Shown: one piece after another, positions 1 through 11,618 of the stretch
How positions within the stretch are numbered: position 1 is the stretch's first letter
How the letters are laid out: every line of letters begins with the position of its first letter
Virus record (IMG/VR): IMGVR_UViG_3300020576_003495
Span: 32,001 to 96,000 of that record
Length of the DNA: 64,000 bases
Source: a virus
Lineage: Duplodnaviria; Caudoviricetes
Strand: one strand, 5' to 3'
The notes under the pieces: model-generated
The model's input: only the letters and a program-made list of their open reading frames with translations
Database searches by the model: none
Told to the model about the DNA's origin: nothing
Position numbers and translations under genes: made by a program

Positions 1-451
1 GTTTGTGAAGAAAGAAGACCTTGAGTTGATTTACAAGGATTGGACAGCTTGGAATGATGCCAAGCGTGGGATGACGCCGACAGGTGAACACACGGGAGCG
101 CATTTACGTCCTGCATCCAATCCAAAACCGGGTATGGCTTTCAGGTTTGCTGCTACACCCAACAAACACTCCTATGGCGGTGAGAGTACACGTCTTGACA
201 ATCACCAGTTTGACCACAAGACCTACAACAAGAATCCGAACCCTTCGGCACACCACGCCCCCAATGCCCCCCAAGTGGCTATTGATGCGACAAAAGAACG
301 CGCCGAGAGTCATATTGACGAAGCCAATAAGAATCGCCACAGTTATCCCGGAGAGAAAGAGTTGGTTCATTCGAAGCCACAAGCCCCTAAGAAGCAAGGA
401 CGGTTTGCTCACTTTATGGATAGCCTAGCTCGAATGGGCAGCAGTGGCTGA
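1..451 (+). CDS. His/Lys-rich putative internal head protein, probably 5'-truncated by window edge
   Basis: Frame is open to the window start; LIYK-DWTAWN resembles the K-DW motif of neighbouring genes. Confidence 0.5.
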   Translation, partial: FVKKEDLELIYKDWTAWNDAKRGMTPTGEHTGAHLRPASNPKPGMAFRFAATPNKHSYGGESTRLDNHQFDHKTYNKNPNPSAHHAPNAPQVAIDATKERAESHIDEANKNRHSYPGEKELVHSKPQAPKKQGRFAHFMDSLARMGSSG

Positions 452-453
452 TC

Positions 454-924
454 ATGGTTTTATTAGAACGCCTAGCCAAAGAAGATTGGACTCAAGCCAG
501 TTGGGGTGAGTCTGATCCCCCGTTCGTTGGGCGTAAGCAACCTGAGCAATCCCAAATAAACCCCAAGAAACGAAAGCCTCATATGTTTGCAAAAATGATG
601 GTGAAGAAAGATTGGACAGTGTGGAATCAGCAGCATCGGGATAGCGCGTCAAAAGCTGCGTGGTCGGCTTCCGATGCGGCCAACACTGCTCGTTCAGATA
701 ATGCTGCCATGATGAAGCTGCACAGACAAGCACAGCAAGCGCACGAGAGCGCGGCACAAGGTTATGCCAAGGAAAGCAATCAGTACAAAGAACACATGAG
801 CGAAGCCTCGACTCATGCTCGCCGTTCTAATGAATTCCGTGACAAGTCGGCAAACGACAAGGGCTTCTCCACAGGAGCAAGCCAAGCGGTTCGTCGGTCT
901 GGTTTCAGCAACTCATCCTTCTGA
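454..924 (+). CDS. Putative internal head protein; internal in-frame leader MFAKMMVKKDW at 583
   Basis: ORF track; ATG at 583 begins a segment nearly identical in DNA to the start of the 934 gene. Confidence 0.55.
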   Translation: MVLLERLAKEDWTQASWGESDPPFVGRKQPEQSQINPKKRKPHMFAKMMVKKDWTVWNQQHRDSASKAAWSASDAANTARSDNAAMMKLHRQAQQAHESAAQGYAKESNQYKEHMSEASTHARRSNEFRDKSANDKGFSTGASQAVRRSGFSNSSF

Positions 925-933
925 AAGATAACT

Positions 934-1284
934 ATGTTTGCAAAAATTATGGTGCAGAAGGATTGGGCGGCGTTCGATGCCATGCGCAAGAACCCCCAAG
1001 CGCAGAAAGTGGCGATTGCAAAGAACCATGAGGTCGCTCAGGGTTTGCTAGCCAAATCTAATGAATTGAAAAACGATTCAGATAGAGCGGTTAAGTTGAA
1101 TGCTCACATGCTCACGCAAGGGTATCTTCCCGACGTAGCTGACAACGGGGACACGCTGTACCTTCCGTTAACAGGTGATCCCAAATCCGATAAACTTCCA
1201 TCAAATCCTGTAGCGGGGCACAAGGTTCATATTGTCCTGAACCATAAGACAGGGCATGTGGATGCTGTTAGTCGGTACACTTAG
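934..1284 (+). CDS. Putative internal head protein (leader MFAKIMVQKDW)
   Basis: Shared leader; tight spacing with neighbours. Confidence 0.55.
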   Translation: MFAKIMVQKDWAAFDAMRKNPQAQKVAIAKNHEVAQGLLAKSNELKNDSDRAVKLNAHMLTQGYLPDVADNGDTLYLPLTGDPKSDKLPSNPVAGHKVHIVLNHKTGHVDAVSRYT

Positions 1285-1293
1285 GAGTTACCA

Positions 1294-1674
1294 ATGTTTG
1301 CAGAAATACTAAAGTCCGACCCCTACCTTGTCCAAAAGCATGGTGTTAAAGGGATGAAGCATGGAGTTAAGCATGCAAAGCCTACGCCTAGTATTGATCA
1401 TTATGCCGAGTCTATAAGGCACATGGAAGAGTCTAGTAGACTGTTTAAAATAAAGGGTCACAGCTTCGGCACAGAAATAGGCGCTCGCGCTGCAAATGCT
1501 TATCCGCTTCACGATACGGCATATAAGTTGCACAAGCGAGCTATAAACCATCCTTCAGATATAAATACCAAAGCGGCCATACGTGCTTCAGCTAAAGCCG
1601 ACCACGCATCGAAGATTCTTTATGATGATGACGCGCCACAGCAGTTACCAGAAAAGTATAGAACATCGGACTAA
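1294..1674 (+). CDS. Putative internal head protein (MFAEILK; HGVKGMKHG motif)
   Basis: AGGAG RBS; shared MF leader; His-rich. Confidence 0.55.
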   Translation: MFAEILKSDPYLVQKHGVKGMKHGVKHAKPTPSIDHYAESIRHMEESSRLFKIKGHSFGTEIGARAANAYPLHDTAYKLHKRAINHPSDINTKAAIRASAKADHASKILYDDDAPQQLPEKYRTSD

Positions 1675-1688
1675 CTGAAGGTACTACC

Positions 1689-2282
1689 ATGTTTGAACGA
1701 ATGTTAACCCGCAAGATGTGGACAAGAGAAGCCCGAGAAGCTTCGGCTAAAGTACGTGCCGCACGTGCCGGACAAAGAACATCGCATTCACAGATTCAAG
1801 CTCCCACCTATACGCATCCTTCGGCACAGCTTCAACCGGAGAACTTTAATCAGAAAGTTCCTGAAGCGTATGACGAGGTTCCCGATGATGAGAAGAAAGT
1901 CAAGCCCCCCACATCCTACGGAAATCAGCGGAGAGTCCCCCCGGAATATGCTGCGAATGGTGGTGGTGTTGATCATGTGGCGGTTGCCAACACAATAATG
2001 AAGCAGTACGGGGGCAACCGATTTAAGGTGATGACTGGTGCAAGTAATTTCACTGCCAGCAAGACTCCCGAAGGACATCCCTACCTTTCCTTCAAGATTC
2101 CCCGTGCCAAGGGGATCACGCATGTCAAAACCGTCCTGAAGCCCGATGACACCTACGACGTGCACATGATTGGGGTTCATGGAAAGAGCATCAAAGAAAA
2201 GCATGTCGCTCATGGGATGCACGCGGATCAACTGGAAGCGCACTTTCAACATCACACCGGACTTTCCACGAGGCTATTCTAA
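1689..2282 (+). CDS. Putative internal head protein with a C-terminal conserved phage domain (TIxxQxGGxRFxxMTGA...DTY...DQL...TGL)
   Basis: MFERMLTRK leader; C-terminal domain recognised from phage hypothetical proteins. Confidence 0.55.
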   Translation: MFERMLTRKMWTREAREASAKVRAARAGQRTSHSQIQAPTYTHPSAQLQPENFNQKVPEAYDEVPDDEKKVKPPTSYGNQRRVPPEYAANGGGVDHVAVANTIMKQYGGNRFKVMTGASNFTASKTPEGHPYLSFKIPRAKGITHVKTVLKPDDTYDVHMIGVHGKSIKEKHVAHGMHADQLEAHFQHHTGLSTRLF

Positions 2283-2776
2283 TGAATACATTTGATGAAG
2301 TAAAAAAAGAATTCTTTCTGGCGCTCAAGGGTGTGGATAAGGCTAACAACGCGGCTACGCCACAAGGCGGAACAACGCAAGCGACCTTCGCTCCCATCAA
2401 CCAACCTAGCCCACAGATTTATACGGCACAAGAAGCGGTTCGGTCTTTATCCAACCACCTTCAACACCCGTGTTCAATCAACCACGATGCTTCAACCACG
2501 GGGGTTCGTCATGCTTCAATGACGGTTCATCCTGAGTGGAATCAGGAACACGTCAAAGAGCAAGCCGATTCCCATTTGGTAAGTTCGGGGTTTAAGGGCA
2601 AGAAAGCTGACGGTTACACAGGAAAAACTTATGAGCATCCACAAACAGGCGCTAAGGTGCATGTGGCTACCATAGGGAAACATCTGGTTATCACGTCAGA
2701 TGACAAAAAGGGCACCAAGGGAACGCCCTACGTAGCAAACCCGGATGCATCGGGGGATAAGAAGGGAAAGAAGTAA
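2282..2776 (+). CDS. Hypothetical His/Lys-rich protein, last of the array
   Basis: TAATG stop-start overlap; composition like its neighbours. Confidence 0.5.
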   Translation: MNTFDEVKKEFFLALKGVDKANNAATPQGGTTQATFAPINQPSPQIYTAQEAVRSLSNHLQHPCSINHDASTTGVRHASMTVHPEWNQEHVKEQADSHLVSSGFKGKKADGYTGKTYEHPQTGAKVHVATIGKHLVITSDDKKGTKGTPYVANPDASGDKKGKK

Positions 2777-4170: not shown

Positions 4171-5118
4171 ATGCCTAGCAATCGTGACCTTATCGCCAAA
4201 GCCGATTTAGCCCTGTCTGATCTGGCTTCCAACGGTGGTATGCTTCTCCCTGAGCAAGCAGACAAGTTTATTCGTGTTCTGATCGAACAACCGACCATTC
4301 TCAATGTGTGCCGTGTTGTGACCATGAACTCCCCACAGCGCAAGATCAACAAGATCGGTTTCGGCTCCCGCATCATGCGTGCTGCTGTTTCCGCTACAGC
4401 GCTGGCCGATGGTGACCGTGTTAAGCCTGATCTTTCCCAGATTACGTTGAACACCAAAGAAGTTATTGCGGAAATCCACCTTCCGTATGACGTTCTTGAA
4501 GACAACATCGAAGGCGGCAACATCGCTGTTCCGCTTCAATCCCCGGCTGGTGGTTTGCATGACACCATCGTTCAACTGATCGCAGAACGCGCTGCTCTTG
4601 ACCTTGAAGAACTCATCCTTCTTGGCGATACGACGCTGGCTGGCTCCGATGCCTACCTTGGTCTGCTTGACGGCTATATCAAGCGCATCAATTCTCACGT
4701 TGTCGATGCTGCCGGTGCCACAATCAGCAAGACGCTGCTCAAGAACGCTCTCAAGTCGCTCCCGCCGAAGTATCTGCGTGACCGTGGCGCTCTGAACTTC
4801 TTCGCTTCGGTTAACAACGAAACAGAACTGCGTGACACCTATGCAAGCCGTAACACACCTTTCGGTGACACGACTCTGCAAGGCTTCAACCCGCTGATGA
4901 TGTACGGTTCGCCAGTTCAAGCCGTGCCGCTGATGCCTGAAAACCGTGTTATTCTTACCAACCCGCTGAACCTGATCTTCGGCGTGCAGCGTAAGATCAA
5001 CATCGAATATACGAAAGATATTCGGGCCAGAGTTTTTATCATCGTTTTGACCGCCAGAGTAGACGCTCAAATCGAAGAAACAAATGCGGCTGCAATAGTT
5101 AGGAACATAGGTTCGTAA
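4171..5118 (+). CDS. Major capsid protein (HK97 fold, XkdG/P2-like)
   Basis: GGMLLPEQADKFI, LPYDVLEDNIEG, DLEELILLGD motifs; strong RBS; highly biased codons; terminator follows. Confidence 0.9.
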   Translation: MPSNRDLIAKADLALSDLASNGGMLLPEQADKFIRVLIEQPTILNVCRVVTMNSPQRKINKIGFGSRIMRAAVSATALADGDRVKPDLSQITLNTKEVIAEIHLPYDVLEDNIEGGNIAVPLQSPAGGLHDTIVQLIAERAALDLEELILLGDTTLAGSDAYLGLLDGYIKRINSHVVDAAGATISKTLLKNALKSLPPKYLRDRGALNFFASVNNETELRDTYASRNTPFGDTTLQGFNPLMMYGSPVQAVPLMPENRVILTNPLNLIFGVQRKINIEYTKDIRARVFIIVLTARVDAQIEETNAAAIVRNIGS

Positions 5119-5259: not shown

Positions 5260-6039
5260 ATGCTAGTCACGGGTGATTTTATGCAAATTGTTTACACTTT
5301 TGGAAGTTGGCGAAGCATGCGAGACAGATGCACGGTTCCTAGCAGCGCAAATTACCTTAGCTACGGTGGTCGTGGAATCATTGTGTGCGAGCGATGGCTA
5401 GAATCTGCGGATAACTTCGTTGTAGATATGGGGATAAAGCCTGTGGGAACTTCCCTAGAGCGCCTTGACGTTAACGGAAATTACGAACCGGCTAACTGTC
5501 AGTGGGCGACAAAGAAACAGCAAGCCCAAAATAGGCGCACCAGCATTGCGCTCACGCATAACGGTGAAACAAAGAACGTTGCTGAGTGGGCTAGGGAAAA
5601 AGGTATGGGCGTGTCGACACTAATTGGGCGACACCACTCAGGAATGCCCCTAGAAAAAGCCTTGGGCGATAAAGTCCATACTAACGCTAAGGAGCGTGCG
5701 CGTAATCGTAAGAGCAACGTCTTAGTTACTTACGACGGTAAAACACAATGCATGATTGAATGGGCAGAAGAAATAAACATTCCTGTGAAGACGCTATGGC
5801 ACCGTAAATCTTTGGGTTGGTCAGATGAGAAAATAGTTACCACTCCGACACATCGTAACCCCGATGTCCCTAAGTTTTATCCTTTCCCCACAGAATCCGG
5901 TGTTGAGATGTTGAATCTTTCAGAAATTGCGCGTAGAACGAATCAAACATTAACAGCGGTTAGAGTTAAAATCTTAGACGGTGAATCCCCTGAAGTGGTG
6001 TTTTCTAATAAAAAACGTAAGCCTAAGCGTTGCAAGTAA
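5260..6039 (+). CDS. Free-standing HNH homing endonuclease with repeated C-terminal DNA-binding modules
   Basis: WxxMxxRC, YGGRGIxVCERW, SLERLDVNGNYEPANCxWAT..Q..N; two xGxTxxxxEWA repeats. Confidence 0.9.
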   Translation: MLVTGDFMQIVYTFGSWRSMRDRCTVPSSANYLSYGGRGIIVCERWLESADNFVVDMGIKPVGTSLERLDVNGNYEPANCQWATKKQQAQNRRTSIALTHNGETKNVAEWAREKGMGVSTLIGRHHSGMPLEKALGDKVHTNAKERARNRKSNVLVTYDGKTQCMIEWAEEINIPVKTLWHRKSLGWSDEKIVTTPTHRNPDVPKFYPFPTESGVEMLNLSEIARRTNQTLTAVRVKILDGESPEVVFSNKKRKPKRCK

Positions 6040-9957: not shown

Positions 9958-10203
9958 TTACTTGCAGCGGCGTTTCAGTTCGGCTTTGACAGCTTTAGCT
10001 GTCTCACCACGCCATGTCCCCGCGTTATTCAGGAAGTAGAGGACGATGCTCTTGGCACTATCGCAACCGTACTTGTCTTCGATGTTGATAATTTCAATCA
10101 TCGCTTGCAGATAGGGTTTAGCCGCAGGATGAACTTTATCCCCCCAATCCTTGCGGATGAGTTGAGCCAGTTGGTAGATCGTCAGTTCTTTAAGGTTTTC
10201 CAT
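9958..10203 (-). CDS. Conserved small phage protein (AxPYLxAM...YFLxNAxxWRGE)
   Basis: ATG 10203 follows the upstream stop with an AGGA RBS; motif recognised from phage hypotheticals. Confidence 0.7.
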   Translation of the reverse strand: MENLKELTIYQLAQLIRKDWGDKVHPAAKPYLQAMIEIINIEDKYGCDSAKSIVLYFLNNAGTWRGETAKAVKAELKRRCK

Positions 10204-10205
10204 GA

Positions 10206-10628
10206 TTAGTCCTTCACAATAAACGGCTTGTCCCACTCACCGACTTTAAGGTCGACGTAAAATCCACACTCGAAATAATCCGTTTGAATATCCGAGTTGT
10301 CATAGTTGCCGGTATTCAGCACCTTCAGGATTTTCTGAAAGACTTCTTTGTTTTCCAGCATCATAGGTTCGTGATACACGTTAACGCTGAAGTTGTCTTC
10401 TGCTAGCCTATCCCGCCCGACGTAGTTTTGACTATCGGCTCGATAGCCGGGGTTCTTAGCGTACACCGCACGGTTATGCTCATCAATCAAATCAACCGGC
10501 GCTGAACGAATAGTCATTACGAGGGTACTGTGGTGCCTCACGCCCAAGCTGTACTTCCAACCTTTCGGGACGACCTTTTTCAGTTGTTCCGCAATTTCCT
10601 TCTTTTTCTCTTGGCTCATGTAAGCCAT
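10206..10628 (-). CDS. Conserved phage protein, LPD29-like (DNSDxQTDYF)
   Basis: GGAGG RBS and own promoter; NYDNSDIQTDYF motif. Confidence 0.7.
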   Translation of the reverse strand: MAYMSQEKKKEIAEQLKKVVPKGWKYSLGVRHHSTLVMTIRSAPVDLIDEHNRAVYAKNPGYRADSQNYVGRDRLAEDNFSVNVYHEPMMLENKEVFQKILKVLNTGNYDNSDIQTDYFECGFYVDLKVGEWDKPFIVKD

Positions 10629-10660
10629 TTTGCCCTCCGTGGCAGTTAGTTCATGTAGTA

Positions 10661-10689
10661 ACTATATACTTTATAGCACCGTTTGTCAA
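10661..10689 (-). promoter_or_regulatory. Early promoter
   Basis: TTGACAAAC, TTGACA-N17-TATAGT on minus strand. Confidence 0.8.
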
Positions 10690-10868
10690 GAGTTACTTTT
10701 GAGTGTTGCTTTTACCGTGATATACCCTTTGGTTTGGATGAGTGCGTAATCCCAATAGTCCTGCGGATGTTGTTCCATGAAGCTAAGAATGTTTTCCGAG
10801 AACAGTTGTGGGTTGTTCTTCACCCAAGTCTTAGAAAACTCCGTTTCTCTGTCTGAATACTGTAGCAT
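10686..10868 (-). CDS. Small hypothetical protein
   Basis: AGGAG RBS on minus strand; stop codon overlaps the next -35 box. Confidence 0.6.
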   Translation of the reverse strand: MLQYSDRETEFSKTWVKNNPQLFSENILSFMEQHPQDYWDYALIQTKGYITVKATLKSNS

Positions 10869-10899
10869 GTTTAAATTCTCCTGTAGTGTTTGCCAAAAC

Positions 10900-11361
10900 T
10901 TACTTCTTAGGTTTCCCTACTTTGGTCAAGGTTTCTTGGTAGGCCAACGCCAGCTTTACTTGGGCGTCTTTTTCTTCACCCGTGAAGCCTTTACGCACGC
11001 TACTACTCGGGGACAAGTAGCTGATCAGTTTTTTGGTGACGATCTTAACTTGCTGGTATTGACCATCACCACTGTAAACCCCTTGTTCTTTGGCGTTACC
11101 GATGTCAATAGAATCGACTCTGCTGAAGCTGGCTGATGAAAGCACTTCACATAGAACAAGATCACCGACCTTGATTTCATCCGCACGCACTGAGCGTAGC
11201 GCATTAAGGTAGTCTTGGGCAGCACGACCACGTTTGGTCAGCTTGACGCCCTTGCCCCCGCAACCGTAGCAACGATCACCGTGCATCTGGTTGTAGGAGT
11301 AACGTCCTGACCCCCCGCAACGACCGCAGGGGACATTTTCAAATAAAAGGGCTTTGGTCAT
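10900..11361 (-). CDS. CxxCxGxG zinc-finger protein
   Basis: CGRCGGSG...CYGCGGKG; ATGA overlap with upstream gene sets start at 11361. Confidence 0.7.
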   Translation of the reverse strand: MTKALLFENVPCGRCGGSGRYSYNQMHGDRCYGCGGKGVKLTKRGRAAQDYLNALRSVRADEIKVGDLVLCEVLSSASFSRVDSIDIGNAKEQGVYSGDGQYQQVKIVTKKLISYLSPSSSVRKGFTGEEKDAQVKLALAYQETLTKVGKPKK

Positions 11362-11618
11362 TTGTATCTTTCGTAGCTTCTGATCTTGGATGACTTGTTG
11401 GCGTTGTGGTTGATGAACTTGACAGGGATGTTCCTGTCGCTCAACGCCCTGCAAAGTGCAGACAGGTCACAGTCTTCTTCAAGGTAGACATGCTCCCCAC
11501 GTTGATAGGAATAGCTGGAAATCTTGTCGGCTATGCCCAAGTCGGTAAGCAGCGAGCGCTTTACTTTACCCCAACCGTGTCCGGGGTCAGTGTAGTATTG
11601 GATTGTCTTGATTTTCAT
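11358..11618 (-). CDS. Conserved phage protein (DPGHGW...YLEEDCD)
   Basis: GGAG RBS; promoter upstream; recognisable motif. Confidence 0.75.
   Translation of the reverse strand: MKIKTIQYYTDPGHGWGKVKRSLLTDLGIADKISSYSYQRGEHVYLEEDCDLSALCRALSDRNIPVKFINHNANKSSKIRSYERYK

Follow-up and report, generated by a model that had tools for sequence, protein, structure and literature searches.

Lysine-ended leader peptides on a small-gene array beside the prohead protease of an uncultured siphovirus-type phage: a possible head-cargo system

The array and its genomic setting

Six tandem genes, referred to here as A to F, lie between an XkdF-type prohead protease gene and a scaffold-like gene in an uncultured tailed phage, and a short Lys-ended sequence motif recurs at or near their starts. 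The window examined comprises bases 32001-96000 (64,000 nucleotides) of a 178,170-bp virus record from IMG/VR (IMGVR_UViG_3300020576_003495); the analysis also covered the 16 kb upstream of the window (locus L002). On the + strand the genes are ordered portal (Pfam Phage_portal), XkdF protease, A-F, scaffold-like gene, capsid, HNH and neck/tail genes (Table 1), and the major tail protein matches phrog_807, indicative of a siphovirus-type tail. Gaps between the array genes measure 2-14 nt, E and F overlap by one base, and no terminator-like site occurs on the + strand within the array. By layout, the array is part of the head operon, and the gene order points to its co-expression with the portal, protease, scaffold and capsid genes.

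Table 1 Features of the head locus, the tail module and dispersed leader-bearing proteins. Positions refer to the window unless marked genome; the closest relative is the IMG/VR contig described in the text.
Feature	Length	Position	Strand	Remarks
XkdF protease	340 aa	genome 30286-31308 (L002:14286-15308)	+	Peptidase_S78_2 domain at aa 8-116 (Pfam E=5.6e-25); ends just upstream of window
Gene A	377 aa	genome 31318-32451; window part 2-451 (last 149 aa)	+	starts 683 nt before window, 9 nt after protease gene; second internal leader with D-W-x-x-W-N at 20-55
Gene B	156 aa	454-924	+	two leader copies, 454-480 and 583-609 (at internal Met)
Gene C	116 aa	934-1284	+	leader 934-960; no homologue in closest relative
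Gene D	126 aa	1294-1674	+	7.9% His; leader plus tag form first 27 aa (1294-1374)
Gene E	197 aa	1689-2282	+	leader 1689-1715; conserved N-terminal helix, disordered linker, alpha/beta domain at aa 95-190 (phrog_9437)
Gene F	164 aa	2282-2776	+	weak leader 2282-2308; conserved His-rich alpha/beta body
Scaffold-like protein	432 aa	2847-4145	+	directly precedes capsid gene
Major capsid protein	315 aa	4171-5118	+	Pfam Phage_capsid; phrog_1623 (E=1e-103)
Candidate capsid propeptide		4171-4200		
HNH endonuclease gene		5260-6039	+	phrog_3377 (E=3e-60); between capsid and neck genes
Island of five small genes		9958-11618	-	within tail module
Tape-measure-like protein	3059 aa	12504-21683		
Dispersed protein	699 aa	genome 7481-9580		leader at aa 5, 504 and 692; ART-PolyVal at aa 545-680 (E=1.9e-28)
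Dispersed protein	1920 aa			leader in N-terminal region; ADPrib_exo_Tox at C-terminus
Dispersed proteins	417 and 543 aa			leader in N-terminal region; zeta-toxin-type kinase
Dispersed proteins	150, 274, 113 and 205 aa			leader in N-terminal region; none found in domain search

The recurring motif, termed the leader below, has the consensus F-x-x-[ILVM]-[LFMV]-(x)-K and ends in Lys after 7-9 residues. It is N-terminal in five array genes and internal in two. A, C, D and E start with Met-Phe-[Ala/Glu]-x-[Ile/Met]-[Leu/Met], as does B at its internal Met (window 583). Behind the leader Lys there usually stands a short conserved tag of one of several kinds: GG-x-GSG-x-H, G-D-x-x-GH-x-F-x-GNQ, an F-N-x-x-H type and an S-D-P-Y type, in addition to a D-W-x-x-W-N tag that is restricted to the array. 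Gene A opens with a leader and the GG-x-GSG-x-H tag and has two further, internal leader sites with D-W-x-x-W-N, making it a probable three-module polyprotein. The D-W-type tag follows both leader copies of B. With their multiple leader copies, A and B look like polyproteins.

A previous reading of the locus, made from the DNA letters without database searches (the sequence-only reading), had quoted seven such N-terminal or internal strings, and all seven are present where it had placed them. Its description of six tandem genes with unrelated bodies needs amendment on several points: the six genes are there, but the first opens upstream of the window, immediately behind the protease gene; B has two leader copies (454 and 583) and A two internal ones; and some modules are paralogous, the middle module of A resembling D (E=8e-7 in a small database) and B resembling both weakly, although the bodies are otherwise unrelated. 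The leader that it assigned to F (2282) is in place but is the weakest match of the set.

The distribution of the motif departs from what composition predicts. Across 289 crude open reading frames (ORFs), F-x-x-[ILVM]-[LFMV]-K has 16 matches against 6.8 expected (P=0.002), and nine of these fall among the first 15 residues of their ORFs, a region that comprises 7.8% of all residues (P=7e-7). The K-D-W form is matched eight times in a six-frame translation of the 178 kb, six of them in the array. When related loci were searched for the tags only, 27 distinct instances were recovered from 17 loci; position -1 was Lys and position -3 Val or Ile in 26 of the 27 each.

Cutting after each leader Lys would yield pieces of 5-21 kDa, all of them basic (pI 8.2-9.8) and containing 2-8% His (5-8% in all except the 44-aa B1 piece), compared with 2.4% for the genome. 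The only match of the array proteins in Pfam, PHROGs and NCBIfam is that of E to phrog_9437, a family without assigned function. Homologues are very few among 5.8 billion proteins, and all come from a handful of contigs, with closer homologues of D, E and F on contigs of 9.8 and 73 kb.

The same leader on dispersed proteins and at head-protein boundaries

Outside the array, the leader stands at the start of, or next to, modules in at least eight dispersed proteins of this genome, which differ in Pfam content (Table 1). The ART-PolyVal domain of the 699-aa protein falls exactly between its last two leader sites. Leader-like motifs also occur at extreme C-termini, in this same protein and in the ADP-ribosyltransferase and the protease of the closest relative.

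Related sites appear in the capsid, scaffold-like and protease proteins. The first 10 residues of the capsid protein end hydrophobic-hydrophobic-x-Lys followed by Ala-Asp, a candidate propeptide that is invariant in about 60 distinct relatives, in agreement with the capsid site proposed by the sequence-only reading. That reading had also listed a series of similar sites in the scaffold; here the outcome is divided, the hydrophobic-x-Lys at aa 46 being invariant and that at aa 67 conserved in 82% of 60 relatives, but the remaining sites poorly conserved. Overall, hydrophobic-x stands before 20 of the 39 Lys residues in the scaffold-like protein, compared with a rate of 0.275 in the proteome (P=0.0014). 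This 432-aa protein matches no family with a function in Pfam or PHROG searches; its position and the lack of an enzymatic domain are as expected of a scaffolding protein, a class typified by an elongated helical or acidic make-up, and its gene precedes the capsid gene in 68 of 68 loci that have both. A role in assembly would fit these features.

In the XkdF protease, a leader-like site at about aa 207-214 separates the catalytic core from a C-terminal DUF5856 domain (E=2.9e-20). The C-terminal extension opens with such a site both here and in the closest relative, as if cargo modules had been fused to the protease itself. A sequence search of the PDB with the extension gave no match. The closest relative's protease has a different C-terminal extension behind its similar site.

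Relatives, turnover and module exchange

For comparison, 80 of 172 capsid relatives in IMG/VR were kept. The cultured capsid relatives, at 50-61% identity, are the Stenotrophomonas phage DLP5, the Vibrio phages SIO-2 and VH2 and the Rhodobacter phage RcZahn. At the DNA level, a megablast comparison of the region with 50,697 phage records found nothing that matched. In DLP5, SIO-2 and RcZahn the order is portal, protease, scaffold-like gene and capsid, with at most one small gene in between, and the distance from protease to scaffold is within 150 nt in 50 of the 68 loci having both genes. Where relatives do have genes inserted at this point, their bodies are unrelated to A-F, yet most start with the leader, often followed by a [FY]-N-P-x-H-D-x-x-G-R-F tag. 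One such insertion encodes a 1271-aa protein (L038:812-4627) with internal tag sites, a PARP-like region and a topoisomerase IB catalytic domain (E=1.7e-32), a candidate capsid-borne topoisomerase.

The closest relative is a single IMG/VR contig (loci L067 and L090). In its head region, genes for an ADP-ribosyltransferase with a leader tag and for a papain-like peptidase come ahead of the XkdF protease gene, behind which are encoded three proteins with the leader and two large ones that lack it; 437-aa and 396-aa polyproteins with internal leader plus GG-x-GSG-x-H sites follow, and then small leader-tagged genes, an F homologue, the scaffold and the capsid. Identities to the present phage are 85% for the capsid, 59% for the protease core, 50% for the scaffold and 28-53% for the A, E and F modules. 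B, C and D have no counterpart there, and eight of the relative's genes have none here. In this comparison the array turns over faster than its neighbours. The papain-family cysteine peptidase (L090:1989-2768; Peptidase_C1, E=5e-16), which directly precedes the relative's prohead protease, is without counterpart in the present phage. Two of the relative's array proteins (L067:510-1388 and L067:7439-7810) contain perfect short peptide repeats, K-E-I-P about ten times and T-E-S-V-D/N about nine times. Comparison of array content across relatives, which the sequence-only reading had proposed as a check, showed the leader kept on differing bodies and gene content shuffled.

The best single piece of evidence is a metagenomic protein, P0015, in which 24 of the first 27 residues are identical to the leader plus tag of D. 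Its body bears no relation to that of D (local score 29 versus a shuffle mean of 28); homology instead links this body to the final module of the closest relative's 396-aa polyprotein (score 164) and, in the present phage, to an untagged gene at genome 173841-174113 (score 104 versus 26 +/- 5). Leaders and bodies have therefore been exchanged in nature, and a site at which a gene begins in one phage is a joint inside a longer protein in another. This pattern is what would be expected of a polyprotein cut site that doubles as an address.

The E domain illustrates that the leader is independent of the cargo behind it. The domain has its own leader here, closes the closest relative's 437-aa polyprotein as its final module, and in the protein P0007 stands behind a different leader and tag that match an internal site of that polyprotein. 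In other phages it occurs as a free-standing protein of ~100 aa; one instance, an untagged 96-aa gene (L091:5540-5830), belongs to an unrelated AT-rich phage, where it is flanked by the genes for the large terminase and the portal. This location suggests a general head-related role for the E-type domain (phrog_9437).

Predicted structures of the array proteins

In the AlphaFold model of E, a helix of low confidence spans residues 2-26, and a disordered stretch leads from it to an alpha/beta domain at aa 95-190 that is modelled with confidence (pLDDT about 88). Foldseek comparison of this domain with the PDB gave no match at E<=0.001; its best VIA Z, 7.7 (a frataxin/MotA-CTD/immunity-protein-like alpha-beta sandwich), is at background level, and no function was drawn from it. 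In the ESM Atlas, residues 95-197 of E matched solely unnamed phage clusters and residues 1-134 of A gave no usable match. The F model reached a pLDDT of 61 and a best Z of 6.4, with no fold match above background; an early guess that F is a HicA-like module is not supported by this model. The bodies of A, B and D are helical and of low complexity.

The small size, basic charge, abundant His and fast turnover of the array products fit DNA-associated internal proteins. The same traits also fit injected modulators; an anti-defence role is speculation. The sequence-only reading had raised the possibility of anti-defence payloads, and structure prediction of E and F, with its background-level fold matches, did not bear this out in that no such function could be assigned.

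Neighbouring genes

The HNH endonuclease gene stands at a site for which the corresponding annotation is absent in DLP5, SIO-2 and RcZahn. Farther downstream, the five small minus-strand genes listed in Table 1, one of which is phrog_10415, lie between tail genes and the tape-measure chaperone region and look like a moron insertion. Leader-like matches on the minus strand at window 9958-10628 were judged to be due to chance, as they are internal to globular-looking proteins of this moron-like island. The tape-measure-like protein has a GH-x-F-x-GNQ tag at about aa 115, identical to one that stands behind leader sites in the cargo proteins, but here without the usual preceding hydrophobic-x-Lys.

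Proposed function and alternative explanations

We favor, at a probability of roughly 0.55, a reading in which the array encodes T4-like internal head proteins and polyproteins that are loaded by their leader and cut after its Lys. The array products would do the work of the T4 internal proteins in a phage of siphovirus type whose prohead protease belongs to the XkdF family (Peptidase_S78_2). The leader would dock each protein to the assembling core, via the protease, the scaffold or both, so that the shell encloses it, and the protease would then cut after the leader Lys. Sites of the same type may serve to trim 10 residues from the capsid protein, to free modules fused to the protease C-terminus and to fragment the scaffold. 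The basic, His-rich products of 11-21 kDa would remain with the DNA and probably exit with it at infection. Under this reading the array is the small-protein part of a genome-wide, fast-evolving set of head cargo, because the same leader also marks larger effectors (ADP-ribosyltransferases, zeta-type kinases and a ParB-like polyprotein).

The components of this proposal differ in strength. It is very probable that the leader works as a peptide signal and has a tie to head proteins. Of the targeting leader envisaged by the sequence-only reading, what stands is a modular, transferable element tied to head proteins with a probable protease site at its end; the evidence comprises its presence on unrelated proteins including ADP-ribosyltransferases of the type that T4 packages, at module boundaries, on the differing genes that occupy this locus in distant relatives and on a swapped body. 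Cleavage after Lys by the XkdF protease is plausible, and is favored by the pattern of fission and fusion, by the capsid N-terminus, by the enrichment in the scaffold and by the leader-like sites at the start of the protease C-terminal extensions. For the array proteins themselves, we infer cleavage, packaging, injection and any anti-defence role from these comparisons.

Several points weigh against this reading. Hydrophobic-x-Lys is a weak motif, the leader of F is weak, and the leader Lys could belong to a single longer conserved peptide that stays uncut. The leader of E sits within the predicted helix 2-26 (of low confidence), which, if real, would be a non-ideal protease substrate. Copies of the leader at extreme C-termini cannot be propeptide cut sites and suggest a binding role there. 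Family and fold searches of the array proteins assigned no cargo function. A literature search gave no measurement of cleavage, virion content or injection for this phage or its relatives and no measured cleavage sites in SIO-2/DLP5-like phages or XkdF proteases; the tag motifs were likewise unmentioned.

The principal rivals are a motif that serves only as a joint and an array of disposable core parts. In the former, the Lys-ended motif is merely a processing joint, whether polyprotein cut site or flexible linker, and loading depends on the tag or the body. The tags (GG-x-GSG-x-H, GH-x-F-x-GNQ, N-P-x-H-D type and D-W-x-x-W-N) are indeed conserved themselves, recur in many relatives and would remain on the mature protein after a cut at Lys, and the conserved unit of D spans 27 residues rather than 7. 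The 7-residue leader nonetheless combines with at least four different tags, and with none at C-termini, and so behaves as a unit of its own; moreover, T4 sets a precedent for an address and a cut site in one propeptide (PMC7411985). We consider this explanation unlikely. A comparably low, marginally smaller likelihood attaches to the idea that A-F are auxiliary core or scaffolding proteins, like T4 gp67 and gp68, that serve the larger capsid of a 178-kb genome and are then degraded and expelled. Such a role is consistent with the position of the array next to the scaffold gene, the lack of a gene there in most relatives with genomes of 80-100 kb, the helical, low-complexity bodies of A, B and D and the enrichment of the same site in the scaffold. 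Parts that determine capsid size would not be expected to differ as greatly as array content does between phages with 85% identical capsids, however, and a 108-kb relative has large enzymes at this position; E and F contain compact conserved alpha/beta domains, and the same leader marks enzymes typical of injected effectors.

Two further explanations are poorly compatible with the data. The shared N-termini might be remnants of tandem gene duplication without signal function, as the 85% identity of the B and C starts over 41 nt and the paralogy of some bodies could indicate; this is disfavored and very improbable, given that the leader is common to non-homologous proteins elsewhere in the genome, lies at internal module borders, occurs in relatives with proteases of only about 50% identity, and stands on a swapped body in P0015. 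Equally remote is a signal at the level of DNA, for example one in which the conserved start sets the context for translation initiation or provides a site of recombination by which cassettes are exchanged. Short DNA repeats do extend across the start codons of B (internal), C and D, and array content is shuffled between relatives, but in-frame internal copies occur far from start codons, distant relatives conserve the amino acids with different codons, and the strict Lys before the tags indicates a peptide signal.

Relation to known head-cargo systems

The closest parallel to the loaded-and-cut reading is phage T4, in which the ADP-ribosyltransferase Alt and small internal proteins are loaded into the prohead by an N-terminal sequence of 10-20 residues that is removed by gp21 (PMC7411985; PMC5512222). 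As with the T4 capsid targeting sequence (CTS) of IPI, IPII, IPIII and Alt, a short N-terminal leader here precedes unrelated, mostly small and basic proteins and an ADP-ribosyltransferase: it is present on A-E, on at least eight dispersed proteins and on the swapped P0015. In both systems the leader-end motif also occurs in capsid and scaffold proteins, and the genes are partly clustered and partly dispersed. In contrast to T4, with its gp21 (S77) protease and Glu at P1, the protease here is XkdF/S78_2 and the presumed P1 residue is Lys; the tail is of siphovirus type, the leaders also occur internally and at C-termini and are followed by conserved tags, and the present system is known from sequence alone. 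Because of the S78_2/XkdF protease and the terminal Lys, the array is regarded as an analogue of the T4 CTS system and not as a member of it.

In giant myoviruses (SPN3US and phiKZ-like phages), a prohead protease cuts ejection or inner-body proteins that bear propeptides (PMC7411985, PMC10052503). There, too, a single consensus motif is the processing site of many proteins inside the head, and targeting to the prohead has been proposed as a role of the propeptides. These propeptides are long (about 110-130 residues), however, their sites are T4-like and end in Glu, and the proteins have no sequence relationship to those of the array. Polyvalent proteins are modular, shuffled effectors thought to travel with the DNA, with processing by zincin-like peptidases proposed (Iyer et al. 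2017, PMC5512222). The dispersed tagged proteins described here (the 699-aa protein with ART-PolyVal and the zeta-kinase proteins) are of this type, whereas the array genes lack defined polyvalent domains in Pfam, PHROG and NCBIfam, and a Lys-ended motif with a link to the head protease marks the borders between modules.

HK97 offers a comparison among siphoviruses, with a protease in the same broad S78 group. Work by Duda, Oh and Hendrix in 2013 reportedly found that the C-terminal part of the HK97 maturation protease targets the protease and proteins fused to it into the procapsid, a short peptide being sufficient for encapsidation. The HK97 capsid protein is cut after a Lys. Its targeting signal differs from the leader in being C-terminal and known for the protease itself only, and no family of cargo genes accompanies it.

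Capsid-targeting leaders are textbook knowledge for T4, and giant myoviruses are known to use long propeptides. In the literature, of which coverage was incomplete, neither a leader ending in Lys nor any of these tags was found described for XkdF-protease siphophages. The small His-rich cargo, the array's own D-W-x-x-W-N tag and the natural leader swap are what is distinctive here.

Implications

Phage proteins that are carried in the head and injected are hard to find, and they include the first-acting factors of counter-defence and host takeover. Beyond T4 and a few giant phages, we know of no rule for recognizing them. A leader that marks such proteins in widespread environmental siphophages would make the "injectome" predictable from sequence and would point to a pool of rapidly changing small proteins of interest with respect to defence systems. 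It would also settle the substrate specificity of XkdF proteases, a poorly studied family, and offer a handle for loading foreign proteins into siphovirus capsids. More broadly, and as a proposition somewhat less likely than not, a large clade of XkdF-protease siphophages could use an address code (F-x-x-hydrophobic-hydrophobic-Lys plus tag) for both capsid loading and release by cleavage. If so, any protein could enter such capsids by the addition of 7-27 residues, and the whole set of injected proteins, including small His-rich proteins that may counter host defences, would be readable from the genome.

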